IMG/VR virus record: IMGVR_UViG_3300042010_000129
Span: 160,001-224,000 of that record
Direction: 5' to 3' (one strand)
DNA from: a virus
Lineage: Duplodnaviria; Caudoviricetes
DNA length: 64,000 nt
In this document: positions 5,674 to 39,784 of the stretch, one piece after another
How the letters are laid out: each line of letters starts with the position of its first letter
How positions within the stretch are numbered: position 1 is the stretch's first letter
Notes under the pieces: generated by a model
What the model was told of the DNA's origin: nothing
What the model saw: only the letters and a program-made list of their open reading frames with translations
Databases searched by the model: none
Made by a program: the position numbers and the translations under genes

Positions 5674-5971
5674 GTTGGATTAACTCCACGTTCAAGAAAT
5701 ATTCCGCATCGTGTACGTCGTGGAAAATACGCCGCCTGCACACCATGCCATGTTGATAAAAGTCTACGGTGAATTTCCGGCGTTTGCCTTTCACGTTCTC
5801 GGAGACTTTGATATTTTTCTCTGAATCGCTGATAAAGATTTCGTGCTGGTACTCGCCACGACTCAAGCGATAAAGGGAGTATGACGCTTCACGCGGTTGA
5901 TCATTGTGTTGAACAATCCGCGCCACTTTGAGGAATTCAGATTTTCGGAGCCAAGGCCAGATGCCTTGCAT
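5552..5971 (-). CDS. Hypothetical protein (boundaries uncertain)
   Basis: Overlaps both neighbours by more than 100 nt; start re-set to MQGIW. Confidence 0.35.
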   Translation of the reverse strand: MQGIWPWLRKSEFLKVARIVQHNDQPREASYSLYRLSRGEYQHEIFISDSEKNIKVSENVKGKRRKFTVDFYQHGMVCRRRIFHDVHDAEYFLNVELIQRDNNSPAPARIARRSGIRSVRTFGWRGTFAPVALLCARRA

Positions 5972-6237
5972 TTTTGTACGCTCTGACGCCGCTGGATTGT
6001 GCGTAGCATGCACAGCAGATCCTCCTTCTTGGACTCGCTGTAGCTTTTTGCAAGTCCTGTATTCAAATTACGCAAAACGAAGCTTTTACGATATTCAATC
6101 AGCACGTAATAAATCGGGCGCTGATCAGCACCGCGTGCCTTGAAAGAAAATTCGAGCGTTCCCTCGCCACGCGATTGCACCACTTTGTACTCAGGCAGTG
6201 CAGCGCGCAAATCCGATACAATTTTTGACCACAACAT
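5863..6237 (-). CDS. Hypothetical protein
   Basis: AAGGA SD upstream of ATG 6237. Confidence 0.55.
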   Translation of the reverse strand: MLWSKIVSDLRAALPEYKVVQSRGEGTLEFSFKARGADQRPIYYVLIEYRKSFVLRNLNTGLAKSYSESKKEDLLCMLRTIQRRQSVQKCKASGLGSENLNSSKWRGLFNTMINRVKRHTPFIA

Positions 6238-6266
6238 TTTTCAGAAATCCTTTTCTCAGTTTTGGG

Positions 6267-6590
6267 TTACAGGCTGCGTGGAATACCGGCCCGTTCTTCG
6301 GCCTGCGCAATGTCTTCCTGCGACAGGCTACGGATGGCAGTTTTGCGAACAGTGAAGCAGAAAATATCGTTCGCGCTGAATTCACCGTTTGCCAGTTTGT
6401 CTTCCAGCACTTCGGCGCCCCGGCGAATTACTTCCGGCAGCGGGTCAGGAATATAGGTTCCTGCTGCGTCGAACATCGTCAGCGTATTTGCCAGTTCGAT
6501 ATCAACGCTTTTCATGCCGCCGCCAGCGCGTGGCCCCGAGACATTTACTTCTGCCGCGTATTGGTCTTCGTAGCGAATTTTATCGTTCAT
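6267..6590 (-). CDS. Hypothetical protein
   Basis: GAGGT SD; 107 aa. Confidence 0.7.
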   Translation of the reverse strand: MNDKIRYEDQYAAEVNVSGPRAGGGMKSVDIELANTLTMFDAAGTYIPDPLPEVIRRGAEVLEDKLANGEFSANDIFCFTVRKTAIRSLSQEDIAQAEERAGIPRSL

Positions 6591-6597
6591 ACAGACC

Positions 6598-7392
6598 TCA
6601 ATGAATGTGGTGATTAGGAACGTTCAGGCGCACCACAGTACGCGTGCAATCGCGCAGCACTGGCAACGACTCATGCACGAACGTAACGTTGCCTGCGTAG
6701 GCCGTGTGGGCGTCCAGAATGACTTCCTGCATATGGCTGAAATCCAGATGCGAAACATCACCACCGGGCAACACCAAACCTTCCCATTCGCCAAGCAATG
6801 CACGACTGGCCGAAATGTCAGAAGCCAAAATAATTGCTTCCGGTCGGTCGTTCAAATCGAACACCCAATTTTCTGCACCAGCTTTTTTCGTCGGTTTGCG
6901 TGTGTCGTAATTTTCGCGTTTGGTCTTGTGGGGTTTTCCGAGGTCGGCACGTTCTTCGTTGCGCTTTTGTTCCTCACGCTGGCGGCGCTGATATTCTTCC
7001 TCGGAAATATACCCGTGCCCATCGCGACGGCGACCAACACCCGAATGGCTACCACGTGGCCCATGAGAGGGAGGACTAACGCCGCCGTGTGCAGAAATTG
7101 CGTTCCACGGTTTTTGTCCATCGTTCCACGCGCCCGCAGGATTCCAATAACCATCAACATGCAGACCGGGGCGACGATGCGTTGTGGTGGCAGAAACAAA
7201 TTTCTGATCGACCATCAAATAAATCGGGCCGTCAGTATCAACGCCGACCAACATTTGATCGACGGTTTGTTGCCAGCGTTTCAGGTCTTCAGGCAGACCA
7301 GTTTCCAAACGAAATTCACGCATGTAAATTCGTTCTGCTGTGAACGCCGGGAAATCAACCGGGCCAACTTTCTGCATAACCGACTGCAACAT
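6598..7392 (-). CDS. 2OG-Fe(II) dioxygenase-like protein with low-complexity insertion
   Basis: HRRPGLHVDG (HxD) ... distal HES ... RTVVRL, the facial-triad/Arg pattern of double-stranded beta-helix oxygenases; start MLQSV at 7392 (TAATG). Confidence 0.6.
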   Translation of the reverse strand: MLQSVMQKVGPVDFPAFTAERIYMREFRLETGLPEDLKRWQQTVDQMLVGVDTDGPIYLMVDQKFVSATTTHRRPGLHVDGYWNPAGAWNDGQKPWNAISAHGGVSPPSHGPRGSHSGVGRRRDGHGYISEEEYQRRQREEQKRNEERADLGKPHKTKRENYDTRKPTKKAGAENWVFDLNDRPEAIILASDISASRALLGEWEGLVLPGGDVSHLDFSHMQEVILDAHTAYAGNVTFVHESLPVLRDCTRTVVRLNVPNHHIH

Positions 7393-21272: not shown

Positions 21273-21487
21273 GTTCTACGCCTTCTTGTCCAGCGGGAAA
21301 ATTTACAGGTAAGAAAACTGATCACGATCAAGACAATCAGGAACCCGGCAAACGTAATCACCGGGCTATCGAAAAATACAATCTTGAAGCGACCGTTATA
21401 CCAATCAATTACTGGCATAAGGCACGACACAAAGCTTAACGCAATGGAATCACCGTGCCTTGCCCAAATGGAACGCAGAAAGTTCAC
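21269..21487 (-). CDS. Small membrane protein
   Basis: Hydrophobic segments; basic C-terminus. Confidence 0.6.
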   Translation of the reverse strand: MNFLRSIWARHGDSIALSFVSCLMPVIDWYNGRFKIVFFDSPVITFAGFLIVLIVISFLTCKFSRWTRRRRT

Positions 21488-21759
21488 TTGAACATTTTCT
21501 CTGCCGGAACGTTGTAAGTTTCCTGCGCCATCACCGAATAGAACAGGCGGGCCAGATCGGTGTGCGCTACCGGCGTTTTGTTCATCATGCGGCTGCGAAT
21601 TGCGCTCGCCATTTCAGGACTGACAAAACCGTTTTCGTCGAACAGCCCCGGCGCAATCAACGGCTTGTCGTTGACCTTCACCGAATTCTGTTTCAGCTGG
21701 CCGTTCGGCATGAACAGCGCGGACAGGGTTTTAGCAGCTTGCATATTTTTGTCGTTCAT
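21484..21759 (-). CDS. Hypothetical protein
   Basis: 91-aa ORF. Confidence 0.65.
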   Translation of the reverse strand: MNDKNMQAAKTLSALFMPNGQLKQNSVKVNDKPLIAPGLFDENGFVSPEMASAIRSRMMNKTPVAHTDLARLFYSVMAQETYNVPAEKMFK

Positions 21760-21760
21760 T

Positions 21761-22333
21761 TTATTGCTCCCGTTGGGCGATGCGCTGTTGCACGTAGTTG
21801 ATAAGTTCGTTCGTGGTTTGCCACGTCATGTCTTCGTCGGGAATTTCGAGGCTGAAATGTTCCTCGACACACAACGTCAGGTCGAACATGGAAATCTCGT
21901 TGAATTCCATTTCGCTGAATGGCGTGCTGGCCTTGATGTGGTCTGCGCGATAACCAAAACTACCGGCCACCATTTCGAGAATCGTGGCTTTCAGTTCTGG
22001 TGCCATTTCACTCGGCATAATTTCCTCTACTTCGTCAAATGGCACGGTGTTCGGCAGCGGGTAATTCTTGGCCGCGTCGTCGAGTGCAGCGCGCAGCGAC
22101 GGCTTTGGTTCCGTCCGCTCAAAGCGCCACATCAAATTGAATTCTTTGGCCGGTGTGCGCTGAAACATATTCGGGTTGATCGACAGGCCGCTATTCGACA
22201 GGGCCGTGCGGCGTTCCAGATAATCGAGGCGATCAGTGTCCTCGAAAAGTTCGCGCAATTTTGCAGCGAGTTTGTAATCGGTGGCGCACACCAATTCGTA
22301 TGCGCGTTGGCGTTCCTGTTTGGTCAGGCTCAT
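21761..22333 (-). CDS. Fusion protein with C-terminal ACP-like domain lacking the carrier Ser
   Basis: C-terminal about 78 aa aligns to ACP (LCVEEHFSLEIPDED..TTNELINYV vs [25 protein letters not shown]); DSL motif replaced by NEI. Confidence 0.75.
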   Translation of the reverse strand: MSLTKQERQRAYELVCATDYKLAAKLRELFEDTDRLDYLERRTALSNSGLSINPNMFQRTPAKEFNLMWRFERTEPKPSLRAALDDAAKNYPLPNTVPFDEVEEIMPSEMAPELKATILEMVAGSFGYRADHIKASTPFSEMEFNEISMFDLTLCVEEHFSLEIPDEDMTWQTTNELINYVQQRIAQREQ

Positions 22334-24034: not shown

Positions 24035-24501
24035 TTGCGCCTCCGCTCTTCTTTTGTCTTCGTCACGATTTTCATCATGTCGGAGAATTCGAAATTTTCA
24101 TCGGTATCACAGCGGTAGATAATCAGCTTCCAGCCGCGTGAAATCTCTTCCAATTCTTTTCCTGTACCTGCCTTACGTTCATCCAACGCCTTCAGCGTGG
24201 AATCCAGTAATTCGCCGTACTTGAACGTGTTGGAAAAATGCCCGGTATTGATATCGAGCCAAACCGCTTTTTCATTCGGCTTGAGTTCTTCTTTTACCCA
24301 CGCTTCGATTGCCTTTACCACGCCTTCATAGCTCAGGTCGTAGTCGATGCCGGTGTGGCCCTTCGGCGGCACGGCACCCGGTGGATTCAGATGCGGATAC
24401 CAGTAGTCGATACTCGGATTCATAATGTTGAGGCCGGTTTCTTCGTACTCGTATGCGTAAATCGGCATACGTGCCATTACAGCATCCCAATCAATATTCA
24501 C
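24031..24501 (-). CDS. Hypothetical protein
   Basis: Coupled 156-aa ORF. Confidence 0.7.
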   Translation of the reverse strand: MNIDWDAVMARMPIYAYEYEETGLNIMNPSIDYWYPHLNPPGAVPPKGHTGIDYDLSYEGVVKAIEAWVKEELKPNEKAVWLDINTGHFSNTFKYGELLDSTLKALDERKAGTGKELEEISRGWKLIIYRCDTDENFEFSDMMKIVTKTKEERRRK

Positions 24502-24860
24502 TGTTGCACCTCAGAATTCCGTCGCACAAATCCAAAGCTCAACACGTAGCGCGTGCCGTGGACAACAGGCGTCACGCTGTGCAGATGCAGATCAGGCCGG
24601 AAGAAAGTGAAAAAACGATTACTGAAAATTGCACCAGCGTGTTCCGGTACACCACCATCCTTTGCGTTCCACAAATAAACGTTCAGCCGATAATGCTTGT
24701 GGTCTGGCACGGGATCGCGATGCTTTGGAATTCCAGATCCCACCGGATAACGCAGCAGGTACAAATCCCATTTGAAGCGACTGAAAAACTTCCAGCGATT
24801 TAGGAGTTTCAGTTTTTCATAACCGGTTCCCTGTCTGCCCGGTTCCCAATTAAATCGCAT
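24498..24860 (-). CDS. 2OG-Fe(II) oxygenase (AlkB/prolyl-hydroxylase superfamily)
   Basis: LLRY..G..IPKHRD (HxD) ... HSVTPV..GTRYVLSFG (H and R). Confidence 0.8.
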   Translation of the reverse strand: MRFNWEPGRQGTGYEKLKLLNRWKFFSRFKWDLYLLRYPVGSGIPKHRDPVPDHKHYRLNVYLWNAKDGGVPEHAGAIFSNRFFTFFRPDLHLHSVTPVVHGTRYVLSFGFVRRNSEVQQ

Positions 24861-25665: not shown

Positions 25666-27684
25666 TTAGAATTTTACGTTCAGGATGCGATTGATTGCGC
25701 CCTTCACACGGACTTGCATTTCAGCACGATCATTGACCGAGAAGCCGAGGCCGCTCAGTTGGTCAGCGCTGGCAGGCACTTTCATTTGCGCGGAAACCGC
25801 TTCGAAAGCTTTGCGATGTTTGCTCAGTTCATCGCGCAGGTATTCGTTGTAGAAACCACGGGTGCCCTCTTCGTTTACGCAGCCCTTGAGCATAAAGAAA
25901 ACATGCTCATGGCCCACGGCCTGATCGTTCCAGAAATTCGGGGAACGGCAGATCAAATCAACCGGTGTCCATTCTTCGGTTTTGATGCCCCAGTTTTCAA
26001 CCGAGGAACCAGCACCACCGACCATGCCTTGGCCTTCGACGCTGATATTGCCAGCTGCATCGACGACGATGTAACCAGCGGTAACGCGGCGATCATTGCC
26101 CAGTTCTTTTGGATGCGAGAAGCTGTAGATTTTGCCCAGCACTTCCACTTCCACTTCGAAGCCGACGTTATTGGTAGTTCGCTGCGACCAGTTGTGAACC
26201 TGAATTTCGTAGCGGCCTTTTTTGATATCGCCTTTGTCAGTCCAGAAAATGTTTTCCACTGGATCGACGCTGTTCGCGGCGTGACCGGCGTTCATGTCCA
26301 CATCGAGCGTGGCATTGAAAACTTTACGGGTACGGAAGTCGCAACGATCCCGGCCATTGTTTACGCTTAGGTCGAGGTCGTCGCCGTTCTGCCACGAAAG
26401 CGAAACGCGAATATCGCCGTCGATTTTACCGCCTGCTTTTTTCACACGTTCGCGAATCGACGACGAAGTAACTTCACCAATGTACGACCACGAAAATGGG
26501 TTGTCCCATTTCAGCAGCGGTTTCGCGTCCGGATTAACCGGGGCGATCAGGGAAACGAAACTGGCGGTGTGTTCGTGCTTCACCAGCACTTCGAGGGTGT
26601 CGGCTTTCGGCAAAACTTTCTTGATGAAATCTTTGATCGAAATGTCTTCAACGTCGTTCAGAACCGGAACGTTTTTCTTGGTCGGTTTGATGCCACCGAA
26701 CGCGCCGCCCAGCAGTTGCTTTTTCACCGTGCCGTCAACGAACAGAACGTCGTTAACCGAAATGTCTTCACGGGTTGCGTAACGACGCGCCAGCGAATCA
26801 CCGAGGCCCAGTTTATCGACCAGCTTTTCAGCTTCGTCGATCATTTTCTGAGTGACCAAAGCTTTCGAACGTTTGTAGTTCGGGCCAGCGGTTTTGAATT
26901 CGAAAGCCTTCACGGCGTTTTCGAGTTCCATGCCTTGGGTGATATCCGACAGCAGCGTGCCCACAACGTCGTTGAGGATGCGGGTGTGCGGCGTCGAATT
27001 CTTCCACAGGAAAATTTCACGACCGCGTTCGGTTTTCAGCTTGGCGTAATCCGCTTTCAGTTTACGCAGCGCTACAACTTTCTTGCGCTTTTCGTCGCCT
27101 TTGTACAGCGAGTCGGTGTCGATCAGATCCATCACGATATCAATCGCGAAATCCGCGATTTCATTGATCGAACGTTCCAGCAGATTTTTGTCTACGCTGG
27201 ATTCACCGATGTAGTCAGTTGGGTTTTTATCCCAACGGAAAATCGCAGGCACCAGACCGTGGAAGTGGTGCCACACTTCGCCCGTTTCTTGGCTGGTGGT
27301 TTTCGCGCAACCGTATTGCGGCATTTCCGCAATGAAACGGTTTTTGATTTTCAGCGAACGCACCTTTGCAGCCATTGCGTCGGCCACCGCTTGATGCGTT
27401 GGATCTTCGACCTGCACATCCCACACGGTCAGCAGTTTACCTTTCTCGGCGTACACGACAGCACCGAGGTTGCGCACGAAATTGTGGCAGGTATTGCATT
27501 CGTATTCGCGACGTTCACGGAACATCGGGTTGGTGCCTTCAGGGAACGACGCAAGGTAATGCGCCCACAATTCGTCACCGTTGATATCAACGAGGAAAAC
27601 GCTGTTCTTTTTCCCTTCGTCTTTTTGCAGCATCGAATTGTAGTTTGCGGTTACAGCCTGACCGAATTTCGAAAAATCACTCAT
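25666..27684 (-). CDS. Large conserved phage protein with C-terminal YfaP/DUF2135-like domain
   Basis: 672 aa; N-terminal YLASFPEGTNP..RER.EYECNTC; C-terminal DIRVSLSW..DDLDL..LDVD.NAG..PVENI pattern. Confidence 0.65.
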   Translation of the reverse strand: MSDFSKFGQAVTANYNSMLQKDEGKKNSVFLVDINGDELWAHYLASFPEGTNPMFRERREYECNTCHNFVRNLGAVVYAEKGKLLTVWDVQVEDPTHQAVADAMAAKVRSLKIKNRFIAEMPQYGCAKTTSQETGEVWHHFHGLVPAIFRWDKNPTDYIGESSVDKNLLERSINEIADFAIDIVMDLIDTDSLYKGDEKRKKVVALRKLKADYAKLKTERGREIFLWKNSTPHTRILNDVVGTLLSDITQGMELENAVKAFEFKTAGPNYKRSKALVTQKMIDEAEKLVDKLGLGDSLARRYATREDISVNDVLFVDGTVKKQLLGGAFGGIKPTKKNVPVLNDVEDISIKDFIKKVLPKADTLEVLVKHEHTASFVSLIAPVNPDAKPLLKWDNPFSWSYIGEVTSSSIRERVKKAGGKIDGDIRVSLSWQNGDDLDLSVNNGRDRCDFRTRKVFNATLDVDMNAGHAANSVDPVENIFWTDKGDIKKGRYEIQVHNWSQRTTNNVGFEVEVEVLGKIYSFSHPKELGNDRRVTAGYIVVDAAGNISVEGQGMVGGAGSSVENWGIKTEEWTPVDLICRSPNFWNDQAVGHEHVFFMLKGCVNEEGTRGFYNEYLRDELSKHRKAFEAVSAQMKVPASADQLSGLGFSVNDRAEMQVRVKGAINRILNVKF

Positions 27685-38481: not shown

Positions 38482-39720
38482 TTAAACCCTCGATGTGATA
38501 ATTGCAAAGTCACTCGGATTCAAATCTGTGTTCTGTGCAAATTTAACCAGTTCGGTAAAACCGAATCGGCCCGCCAGTTCGTCGATGATTTCGATCCGGC
38601 GTTTCAGGCCCGACAATTCGTAAACTGCGGAGTCTTCCAAATCGTGACGGCCTGTACCCACTACAGTATTGAACAGGGCCACCAGACCGGGCGTGGAAAG
38701 ATCCGACAGCTTATCCACGGTTTCATCGTCTGGCTCTGCGTAGATTTCTTCGTCGTCGAATGAGTCCGGTTCTTCCTCTTCGTCGTCTTCCGGGTCACGG
38801 AAAGAAGAACCGATGCTGTAGCAACTGCGGCGGCACGGATGAACCGATCCGAGCATTTCGTGAAACACACGCAGCACGTCAGATTGAGCATGCGCCACGA
38901 CGTTTTCACTTTCGTAAATGTCGAAAACCCGATCAGCGATTTTCAATTCGAACGCGCTTTGCAAACTGAACAATTGCTGCGTCGTGTCTTTGCCGTTGTA
39001 CAGGTGCTGCATATACCGCAGCGATTTTTTCACGCAGGCCACATAACGCACGATTACAGAAACCAGCCATTCGTCTAGGCGCTTTGGCATTGCAGCGCCA
39101 GCCAACCGCGCCATATCGCACAGGGCCAGAATATGCGACTCGGAACCGACGTTGTGATCAATCACCAGCATTTCACCGACGTACAAACGGAAGCCGTTAA
39201 AGCCTTCGCTGATTTCCACGACAGCGCGGGCGAACGTGGTAGAAGTCGGCACGTTGCACAGGTGTACTGCGCCATCGCTGTGAATCTGCATAACGAAACC
39301 GGCAGTAGCTTTTGTGGGCGCCAATTTCTTTTCGAGGTCGCCCATGATCAGCGACAGATTGTGCGGACGGCTGTTTTGGAATCTAACCGGCTCGCCCATT
39401 TCCTTTGCCATTTTCACCACAACCTTTTTCGGTTGGGCTGCAAGCGGCGCCGAATCCATCGGTTCATGATTCGCGATATACATTTCGATATCCGCGACTG
39501 TTTTCCAACCACTCGAACCGCCGCCCGGAATTTCGATTTCGAATTCCTCTTCAAGATCCATGACGATTTCGCCAAGATCCATTGAGTCGATTTTCAGGGA
39601 ATGTCTGAGCGTGTCTGCCGAATCAATCGGGTGCCCGATTTTCATGCCCATGTGATCAGTAATGACGCGGCGGATGCGATTCATTTGATCAGCAGAAACT
39701 TTCTTGTTCGACTTAGCCAT
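38482..39720 (-). CDS. N-terminal acyl-carrier-protein domain fused to an unknown domain
   Basis: SLKIDSMDLGEIVMDLEEEFEIEIP...KTVADIEMYI aligns to ACP with an intact DS motif (S46); acidic tract near C-terminus. Confidence 0.8.
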   Translation of the reverse strand: MAKSNKKVSADQMNRIRRVITDHMGMKIGHPIDSADTLRHSLKIDSMDLGEIVMDLEEEFEIEIPGGGSSGWKTVADIEMYIANHEPMDSAPLAAQPKKVVVKMAKEMGEPVRFQNSRPHNLSLIMGDLEKKLAPTKATAGFVMQIHSDGAVHLCNVPTSTTFARAVVEISEGFNGFRLYVGEMLVIDHNVGSESHILALCDMARLAGAAMPKRLDEWLVSVIVRYVACVKKSLRYMQHLYNGKDTTQQLFSLQSAFELKIADRVFDIYESENVVAHAQSDVLRVFHEMLGSVHPCRRSCYSIGSSFRDPEDDEEEEPDSFDDEEIYAEPDDETVDKLSDLSTPGLVALFNTVVGTGRHDLEDSAVYELSGLKRRIEIIDELAGRFGFTELVKFAQNTDLNPSDFAIITSRV

Positions 39721-39728
39721 GGTGCGAA

Positions 39729-39784
39729 TTCCTTGATAAAGGTCAGTTTGATTTACTACTGACAAAACCCGCACATGGCGGGCT
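39729..39784 (-). repeat. Hairpin+RBS intergenic repeat (family A)
   Basis: 52/56 identical to 53539-53594; cccgc-acatg-gcggg hairpin; TTTATCAAGGAA RBS. Confidence 0.85.

Follow-up and report, generated by a model that had tools for sequence, protein, structure and literature searches.

A serine-less acyl carrier protein fold fused to an orphan domain in a Lu11/HRDY3-like jumbo phage: a probable cofactor-independent docking module

Within a 64,000-nucleotide (nt) stretch of viral DNA (positions 160,001 to 224,000 of IMG/VR record IMGVR_UViG_3300042010_000129; hereafter, the window), a minus-strand gene of 573 nt (21761..22333, stop codon included; delimited from the list of open reading frames [ORFs] and its translation) encodes a 190-amino-acid (aa) protein, P0001, in which a family-specific N-terminal domain is fused to the fold of an acyl carrier protein (ACP). 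The C-terminal domain is a genuine ACP fold that lacks the serine to which phosphopantetheine is attached. The residue at this site is labile in two paralogous families, the serine-less domain is under purifying selection, and the two-domain architecture and the synteny of the locus are kept among relatives. From these observations, we infer that the protein acts by docking, and any partner named below is likewise only proposed. Specifically, we consider it probable that the protein works as an adaptor with two modules in Lu11/HRDY3-like jumbo Pseudomonas phages and that its serine-less ACP has been kept as a cofactor-independent docking domain.

An ACP fold without its attachment serine

The C-terminal domain (residues 113-190; 21764..21997, minus strand; isoelectric point [pI] 4.3, net charge -10) was delimited by its Pfam match, by matches to ACP chains in the Protein Data Bank (PDB), and by Foldseek. 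The Pfam family PF00550 (PP-binding) aligns with residues 117-181 at 30.9 bits (gathering cut-off, 20.8 bits) over profile positions 2-67 of 67, and the same family was matched in 14/14 family members tested. Searching the PDB chains with phmmer returned almost only ACPs, with the Aquifex ACP 2ehs at the top (E 5e-6). In the AlphaFold2 (AF2) model, the C-terminal domain has a predicted local distance difference test (pLDDT) score of 70-84, and DSSP assigns helices to residues 112-126, 139-142, 146-160, and 174-189, which form a four-helix ACP bundle in which a long loop separates helices I and II and helix III is short. Compared with the PDB by Foldseek, this model matched AcpP and other ACP chains with template modeling (TM) scores (by target) of 0.83-0.88 and root mean square deviations of ~1.0-1.2 Å over 70-76 residues. 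The ACP-like fold and register, which a first-pass annotation had proposed from the letters of the DNA, are thus borne out by the predicted structure.

At the active site, Glu146 falls opposite the phosphopantetheine serine in each of the HMMER alignments to 2ehs, 7e42, and 1vku, and the same register was recovered when stand-alone ACPs and orthologues were aligned with MAFFT, so that the ungapped alignment by which the glutamate had first been assigned to the Ser36 position is real. Alignments, DSSP, and the codon table agree in identifying Glu146 (codon GAG; 21896..21898, minus strand) as the first residue of helix II, at the position of AcpP Ser36. Here, the window protein reads E-F-N-E-I-S in place of the canonical G-A-D-S-L-D, and the carrier motif (G)xDS(L/I) is missing from the N terminus of helix II. 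The helix II/III signature, in turn, is retained as had been claimed, in the form of D151, E157, E158, F160, and E163-I164-P165-D166.

We considered whether the domain might still be a carrier, in which Ser148, raised as an alternative site by the first-pass annotation, or an unusual linkage bears phosphopantetheine, so that the protein shuttles acyl groups on behalf of an enzyme of the phage or the host, and we regard this as very improbable. A serine does lie two residues past the canonical site, in the EIS motif, and Pseudomonas has a broad-specificity phosphopantetheinyl transferase (PPTase). Against this reading, Ser148 sits one turn into helix II, at the position of AcpP D38, and it is no substitute attachment site, because it is replaced by Ala in the closest relatives (P0002, P0003, and P0040) and by Asp in the remaining clades. 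Moreover, the equivalent of AcpP Asp35 is Asn in the window protein, and in E. coli ACP the D35N substitution alone abolishes modification by AcpS in vivo (bioRxiv 10.1101/2025.01.28.635281). The machinery of a carrier was not found either: a Pfam scan of the 126 window ORFs revealed no ketosynthase, acyltransferase, AMP ligase/adenylating enzyme, or PPTase, its sole carrier-related matches being two ACP domains, and PF01648, the only PPTase family searched, was not found in the complete genomes of Lu11 and HRDY3. Lacking an attachment serine and having Asn at the Asp35 position, the window protein very probably cannot serve as a carrier, and it would instead work through binding, with no prosthetic group attached. 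This agrees with the first-pass description of the domain as non-modifiable.

Serine-site history and selection in two ACP-domain families

From two database searches and cluster look-ups, we assembled a family of 32 proteins that have the same architecture, are 24-98% identical to the window protein, and are encoded on jumbo-phage contigs of ~310-320 kb. The serine site is occupied by Ser in 14/32 members (as GADSVD or MDSLD), by Glu in 14/32, and by Asn in 4/32. Conservation of the serine loss among homologues, which had been left as a point to be checked, therefore holds in part: 18 of the 32 have lost the residue, whereas 14 keep it. The former PPTase motif GADS(L/V)D is eroded to EFNEIS or EADEIA, and the helix II/III residues are fixed; across the 32 members, E157, D166, and Y180 never change, and I164, P165, and V181 hardly do.

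In a maximum-likelihood tree, for which the long HRDY3-like forms of 231-248 aa served as the root, Ser is present in all seven outgroup rows and in the deep-branching P0014, and Ser is therefore the ancestral state. The 190-197-aa subfamily falls into four well-supported clades (one with Ser, one with Asn, one with Glu that includes the window protein, and a second with Glu); because the tree does not resolve their branching order, between one and three losses of the serine are required. At the site, Ser is encoded by AGC, Asn by AAT, and Glu by GAA or GAG, which puts Glu two to three substitutions away from Ser, and the route plausibly led via Asn and Asp. Asp occupies the site in Lu11_0346, annotated as hypothetical, which reads GVDDLD and from which the core of the N-terminal domain is absent. 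Profile matches to the family have E values of 1e-42 for the HRDY3 protein and 2.5e-13 for the Lu11 protein, and hhalign gives a probability of 97% for Lu11_0346.

The window encodes a second protein with an ACP domain (ACP2; we refer to the domain of the fusion protein as ACP1), which was found with a custom ACP hidden Markov model (E 3e-15) and which reaches 21.3 bits against PF00550. It is 412 aa long when read from the ATG at 39720 (38482..39720, minus strand; in the list of ORFs its start is a GTG at 39774). Its N-terminal ACP domain retains the serine in an intact IDSMD (Ser46), and an orphan part of ~310 aa makes up the C terminus. Its orthologues likewise vary at the serine site, which is Gly in L021, L026, and L027, Asp in L024, and Glu in Lu11. 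By walking related contigs, we read ACP1/ACP2 pairs from the same DNA molecules, with the following combinations: Glu/Ser in the window, Ser/Gly in L021, Asn/Asp in L024, Glu/Gly in both L026 and L027, and Asp/Glu in Lu11, while L025 combines an Asn in ACP1 with an ACP2 that was not found in the 20 kb fetched. Neither domain has Ser in 4/7 phages examined (L024, L026, L027, and Lu11, the last as a complete genome). The idea that one serine-bearing ACP domain is always kept and compensates for the other is ruled out by Lu11, L024, and L026/L027. In L025 (logan ERR8576902_379, region 5800-6800; Asn clade), ACP2 is absent from its syntenic place and tblastn drew a blank in the 20 kb, so ACP2 appears dispensable. 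The two Lu11 genes concerned, Lu11_0346 (L006:10738-11160) and the ACP2 relative (L012:1021-1746, minus strand, at ~275.4 kb; LADETD), are both annotated as hypothetical and are the sole PP-binding matches in the complete Lu11 genome; the latter encodes a shorter protein of 241 aa, and in HRDY3 only the C-terminal part of ACP2 is matched.

The first-pass annotation had explained the glutamate as a negatively charged mimic of holo-ACP. With Ser, Asn, Asp, and Glu in ACP1 and Ser, Gly, Asp, and Glu in ACP2, charge is not conserved at the site, and this explanation is not supported. Ser, Gly, Asn, and Asp are favored helix N-cap residues, and the Ser/Gly/Asn/Asp/Glu range would be better explained by a constraint of structure alone than by a requirement for negative charge.

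Selection on the domains was estimated as the ratio of nonsynonymous to synonymous substitution rates (dN/dS) by the Nei-Gojobori method from codon alignments of seven loci. Within the Glu clade of the window, dN/dS is ~0.05 for the N-terminal domain and 0.29-0.32 for the ACP domain. Comparing the second Glu clade with the Asn clade gives 0.145 for the ACP domain, and the linker between the two domains has a dN/dS of ~1 between clades; all of these values derive from small counts. The serine-less ACP domain is thus under purifying selection, relaxed relative to the N-terminal domain but not decaying. These values bear on the suggestion that the domain is a decaying remnant, a former carrier that drifts in the window clade while only the N-terminal domain matters, which we consider improbable. 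What speaks for it is that the DSL motif is eroded at 5/6 positions and varies among close relatives (FNEIS, FNEVS, ADEIA), together with an ACP-domain dN/dS about six times that of the N-terminal domain. Yet a range of 0.15-0.32 is well under 1, none of the 18 serine-less members (0/18) has a frameshift, stop, or truncation, the fold is confidently predicted, and little or no change is seen at E157, I164-P165-D166, and Y180-V181. Furthermore, Lu11 has retained the ACP part and dropped the core of the N-terminal domain, the reverse of what a remnant predicts.

N-terminal domain, candidate partners, and genomic setting

The N-terminal domain (residues 1-93; 22055..22333, minus strand; pI 8.8), delimited from the alignments, is better conserved than any other part of the protein and is marked by the motifs D-x-D-R-L-D-Y-L-E, S-G-L-S-I-N, M-W-R-F, and L-R-A-A-I-D. 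Folded alone with AF2, it gives a model of moderate confidence (pLDDT 75), in which a helical hairpin is followed by two short strands and then a helix. No match was found in Pfam, PHROGs, PDB sequences, the Foldseek pdb and BFVD libraries, the VIA-wide search, or the Atlas. The VIA-wide search gave helical hairpins only (best Z 4.0), the Atlas shape search its own family only, the Atlas feature search scores of 0.86 or less, and Pfam and PHROGs nothing beyond sub-threshold hits to HTH_46 and Phage_TAC_6. The fusion to a domain of the form DRLDYLE...LRAALDDA, as first described, is therefore real, while this domain, described there as a phage N-terminal domain, finds no counterpart in Pfam, PHROGs, the PDB, or the fold libraries. 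We also tried an Ead/Ea22-like identity (PF13935), the one link to which was a weak Atlas feature neighbor (score 0.76, with the family in 29% of its members); 0/14 members searched matched the profile at E <= 5, and any relationship would be distant and structural. Between the two domains lies an acidic, variable linker (residues 94-112; 21998..22054, minus strand; net charge -5), recognized by pLDDT, alignments, and dN/dS. Its pLDDT is below 50 at residues 95-108, its length and sequence differ between clades, and it is probably flexible.

In the mechanism that we favor, the C-terminal module would have descended from a genuine ACP, would no longer be phosphopantetheinylated, and would have been retained for protein docking. 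The docking surface may be the conserved acidic face of helices II and III (D151, E157, E158, E163, and I164-P165-D166), as in the binding of ACPs to their partners, and its target would be a basic surface on the partner. The acidic linker would flexibly tether this module to the more conserved N-terminal domain, whose undescribed fold probably holds the lineage-specific activity. The leading candidate for a phage partner would be a co-conserved, translationally coupled basic protein of 91 aa; alternatively, the module may dock onto host ACP-binding enzymes.

The gene of the 91-aa protein (pI 9.4; 21484..21759, minus strand) lies directly downstream of the ACP-fusion gene. It starts 1 nt past the ACP stop codon, and its GGGAG ribosome-binding site lies within the last codons of the ACP gene. 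It is found directly 3' of the ACP gene in the window and in 9/9 related metagenomic loci fetched, and its homologues are 1-3 genes away in HRDY3 and Lu11; the family, which is confined to Lu11/HRDY3-like phages, has the invariant motif SAIRSRMM..P.AHTDLARLFY and no match in Pfam or PHROGs. In Lu11, the 91-aa gene accompanies an ACP gene that lacks the N-terminal domain core, so it is the ACP part that the 91-aa gene tracks. Predicting the complex from an alignment of the full-length fusion family and one of the 91-aa family gave a score of 0.00, which argues neither for nor against binding. In HRDY3, a stand-alone 90-aa ACP (GGDSLD; L001:6581-6853, PQ015379.1 301613-301885) follows right after the fusion of N-terminal domain and ACP, overlapping the fusion gene by 14 nt; in the window phage, this place is taken by the unrelated 91-aa gene. 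The possibility that the 91-aa protein is itself a diverged ACP was examined against this HRDY3 protein, and no similarity was found. The Pseudomonas phage pf16 encodes a different ACP fusion, in which Ser is kept, and no homologue of the 91-aa protein.

The host-enzyme option leads to the main competing explanation, a host-directed decoy, which the first-pass annotation had put forward. Here, the serine-less domain would imitate apo- or holo-AcpP and competitively occupy host ACP-binding enzymes; we judge this possible but unlikely. Its proposed targets (PlsB, LpxA/D, Fab enzymes, acyl-homoserine lactone [AHL] synthases, and MukB), through which host lipid or signal synthesis would be shut down or redirected, are no more probable. 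The decoy is favored by the retention of the partner-binding acids, since D151, E157, and E158 correspond to AcpP E41, E47, and E48, with which AcpP forms ion pairs to AcpS (bioRxiv 10.1101/2025.01.28.635281), and by the location of the gene among small orphan genes typical of host-takeover regions. It also draws on the finding that surplus ACP halts the growth of E. coli by inhibiting glycerol-3-phosphate acyltransferase, with apo-ACP as the stronger inhibitor (review PMC3896788). In the same review, however, SpoT is reported not to bind apo-ACP, which tells against SpoT, one of the targets first named (PMC3896788). The domain is, moreover, distant from host AcpP, scoring 17-19 bits against the E. 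coli and P. putida proteins (2ehs is the best match, at ~30% identity). Orthologues of the same architecture with a canonical GADSVD would probably become holo-ACP, and the Asn orthologues together with the Gly in ACP2 oppose a charge-based holo mimic. Finally, a simple decoy would have no need of the fused N-terminal domain, which is strongly conserved and more constrained than the ACP domain (dN/dS of 0.05 versus 0.3).

It is tempting to extend docking to a broader picture, in which serine-less phage ACP modules would form a recurrent and unrecognized class of host-takeover or counter-defense proteins, but we hold this to be unlikely. Such a class would require that phages repeatedly capture the ACP fold and drop the cofactor serine, a course of events that we consider doubtful. 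The acidic docking helix would then, equally tentatively, seize host ACP clients (PlsB, LpxA/D, MukB, ISC, SpoT, and others) or an ACP-dependent defense, and the orphan N-terminal domain and the 91-aa basic protein would give the effector activity, a division of labor to which we likewise attach little probability.

Several points weigh against cofactor-independent docking as the explanation for the window protein. The dN/dS values come from small counts, with 7-12 synonymous differences within the clade, and the roughly sixfold faster evolution of the ACP domain compared with the N-terminal domain would also suit an accessory role under weak constraint. The PPTase search covered PF01648 in two relatives, and ~250 kb of the genome of this phage lie outside it. 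Lastly, the serine-bearing orthologues might be pantetheinylated by a host PPTase and act as carriers, in which case the original role of the family could differ from its role in the window phage.

As for the genomic setting, the nearby 672-aa window protein shares 57-60% identity with proteins of two Pseudomonas phages, HRDY3 (genome of 313.7 kb) and Lu11 (280.5 kb), and exactly the 190-aa window protein is recorded on metagenomic contigs as long as ~312 kb. On these grounds, the window is a portion of a jumbo phage of ~312 kb that is Lu11/HRDY3-like and of the Pseudomonas type. A megablast search of phages gave no match, and no relatives were found among the IMG/VR viral contigs. The fusion gene is tightly packed on the minus strand, with the stop codon of the upstream ORF 2 nt before its ATG and a Shine-Dalgarno-like GGTGA 8 nt ahead of that ATG, and a promoter and terminator scan around it gave matches no more numerous than in shuffled sequence. 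The neighborhood is kept, with the fusion gene downstream of the 672-aa gene (DUF8224) and next to the 91-aa gene or near it, in a synteny check that took in the window, loci L002, L003, L013-L016, and L021-L027, as well as HRDY3 and Lu11.

For the 672-aa protein (25666-27684, minus strand; labeled DUF8224 in related loci), tblastn found matches in 555 phage records, the top ones 45-60% identical. The hosts span many genera, among them Salmonella, Klebsiella, Bacillus, and Caulobacter, and the protein is nearly always labeled hypothetical. A 120-aa protein (24498-24860, minus strand) strongly matches phrog_13746 (E 2.6e-54) and weakly matches a 2-oxoglutarate-Fe(II) oxygenase family (PF13640; E 4e-4, under the cut-off). 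Overall, the Pfam scan returned 12 families only, leaving ~90% of the 126 window ORFs without a Pfam family. Its matches, on minus-strand ORFs, include a VgrG3-like C-terminal domain of the type VI secretion system (a strong match, E 4e-54), a LytTR DNA-binding domain, a DksA/TraR zinc finger, a KorA-like repressor, RlaP, and DUF7352.

Comparison with known systems

In our literature search, we found no paper on phage serine-less ACPs, on this family, or on HRDY3, and no experimental study of the HRDY3, Lu11, or ctshb19 orthologues. Public records label members of the family "acyl carrier protein" or "hypothetical protein," and the former label suggests an auxiliary gene of lipid metabolism. 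The evidence points instead to a group of jumbo phages that uses a cofactor-free ACP fold in two separate fusion proteins, with Ser, Gly, Asn, Asp, or Glu, in free variation, as the former active-site residue. Should the fusion protein dock onto an ACP-client enzyme of the host, a phage would have a new route to the control of host membrane or signal synthesis; if the partner is the 91-aa protein, a new phage-internal module would be defined. Both outcomes can be tested in the cultivated relatives Lu11 and HRDY3, which grow on Pseudomonas putida.

Among phage proteins, HRDY3 XDJ15383.1, Lu11_0346 (AFH14884.1), and A0A8S5UG88 of Myoviridae sp. ctshb19 belong to the same family as the window protein. 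The HRDY3 orthologue differs from it in having kept Ser (MDSLD), in its longer linker, and in the canonical stand-alone ACP encoded next to it. Another ACP fusion design is seen in pf16, a P. putida phage: pf16_58 (L019:4963-5454) encodes 163 aa, with an N-terminal ACP domain (GTDSLD) and an undescribed tail of 85 aa, and lies ~500 bp (one small gene) upstream of the pf16 homologue of the 672-aa gene.

Compared with bacterial AcpP (2ehs; E. coli 1l0h/4ihf; P. putida 7pdi), the window domain shares the four-helix fold (TM 0.83-0.88), the acidic helix II, the E-I-P-D turn of helix III, and the low pI (4.3), and its core residues match AcpP F28, E41, E47, F50, I54, P55, D56, and Y71. Unlike AcpP, it has Glu for Ser36 and an eroded GxDSL motif, is only ~20-30% identical, and is fused behind an orphan domain of 93 residues; it is also not accompanied by fatty-acid or polyketide enzymes (window ORFs) or by a PPTase (window ORFs and the genomes of two relatives).

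The family offers a clean natural system for roles of the ACP fold other than that of a carrier, for which there is one well-studied precedent, the mitochondrial ACP of Plasmodium falciparum, which lacks phosphopantetheine, is essential, and binds Isd11-Nfs1 (Falekun et al. 2021, eLife, PMC8547962). In both cases, a cofactor-free ACP homologue has been retained, with a binding-only role that is established for the Plasmodium protein and that we propose for the window domain. Unlike the window protein, the Plasmodium ACP is eukaryotic, organellar, and stand-alone, and has a known partner; the two are akin only through the ACP superfamily.

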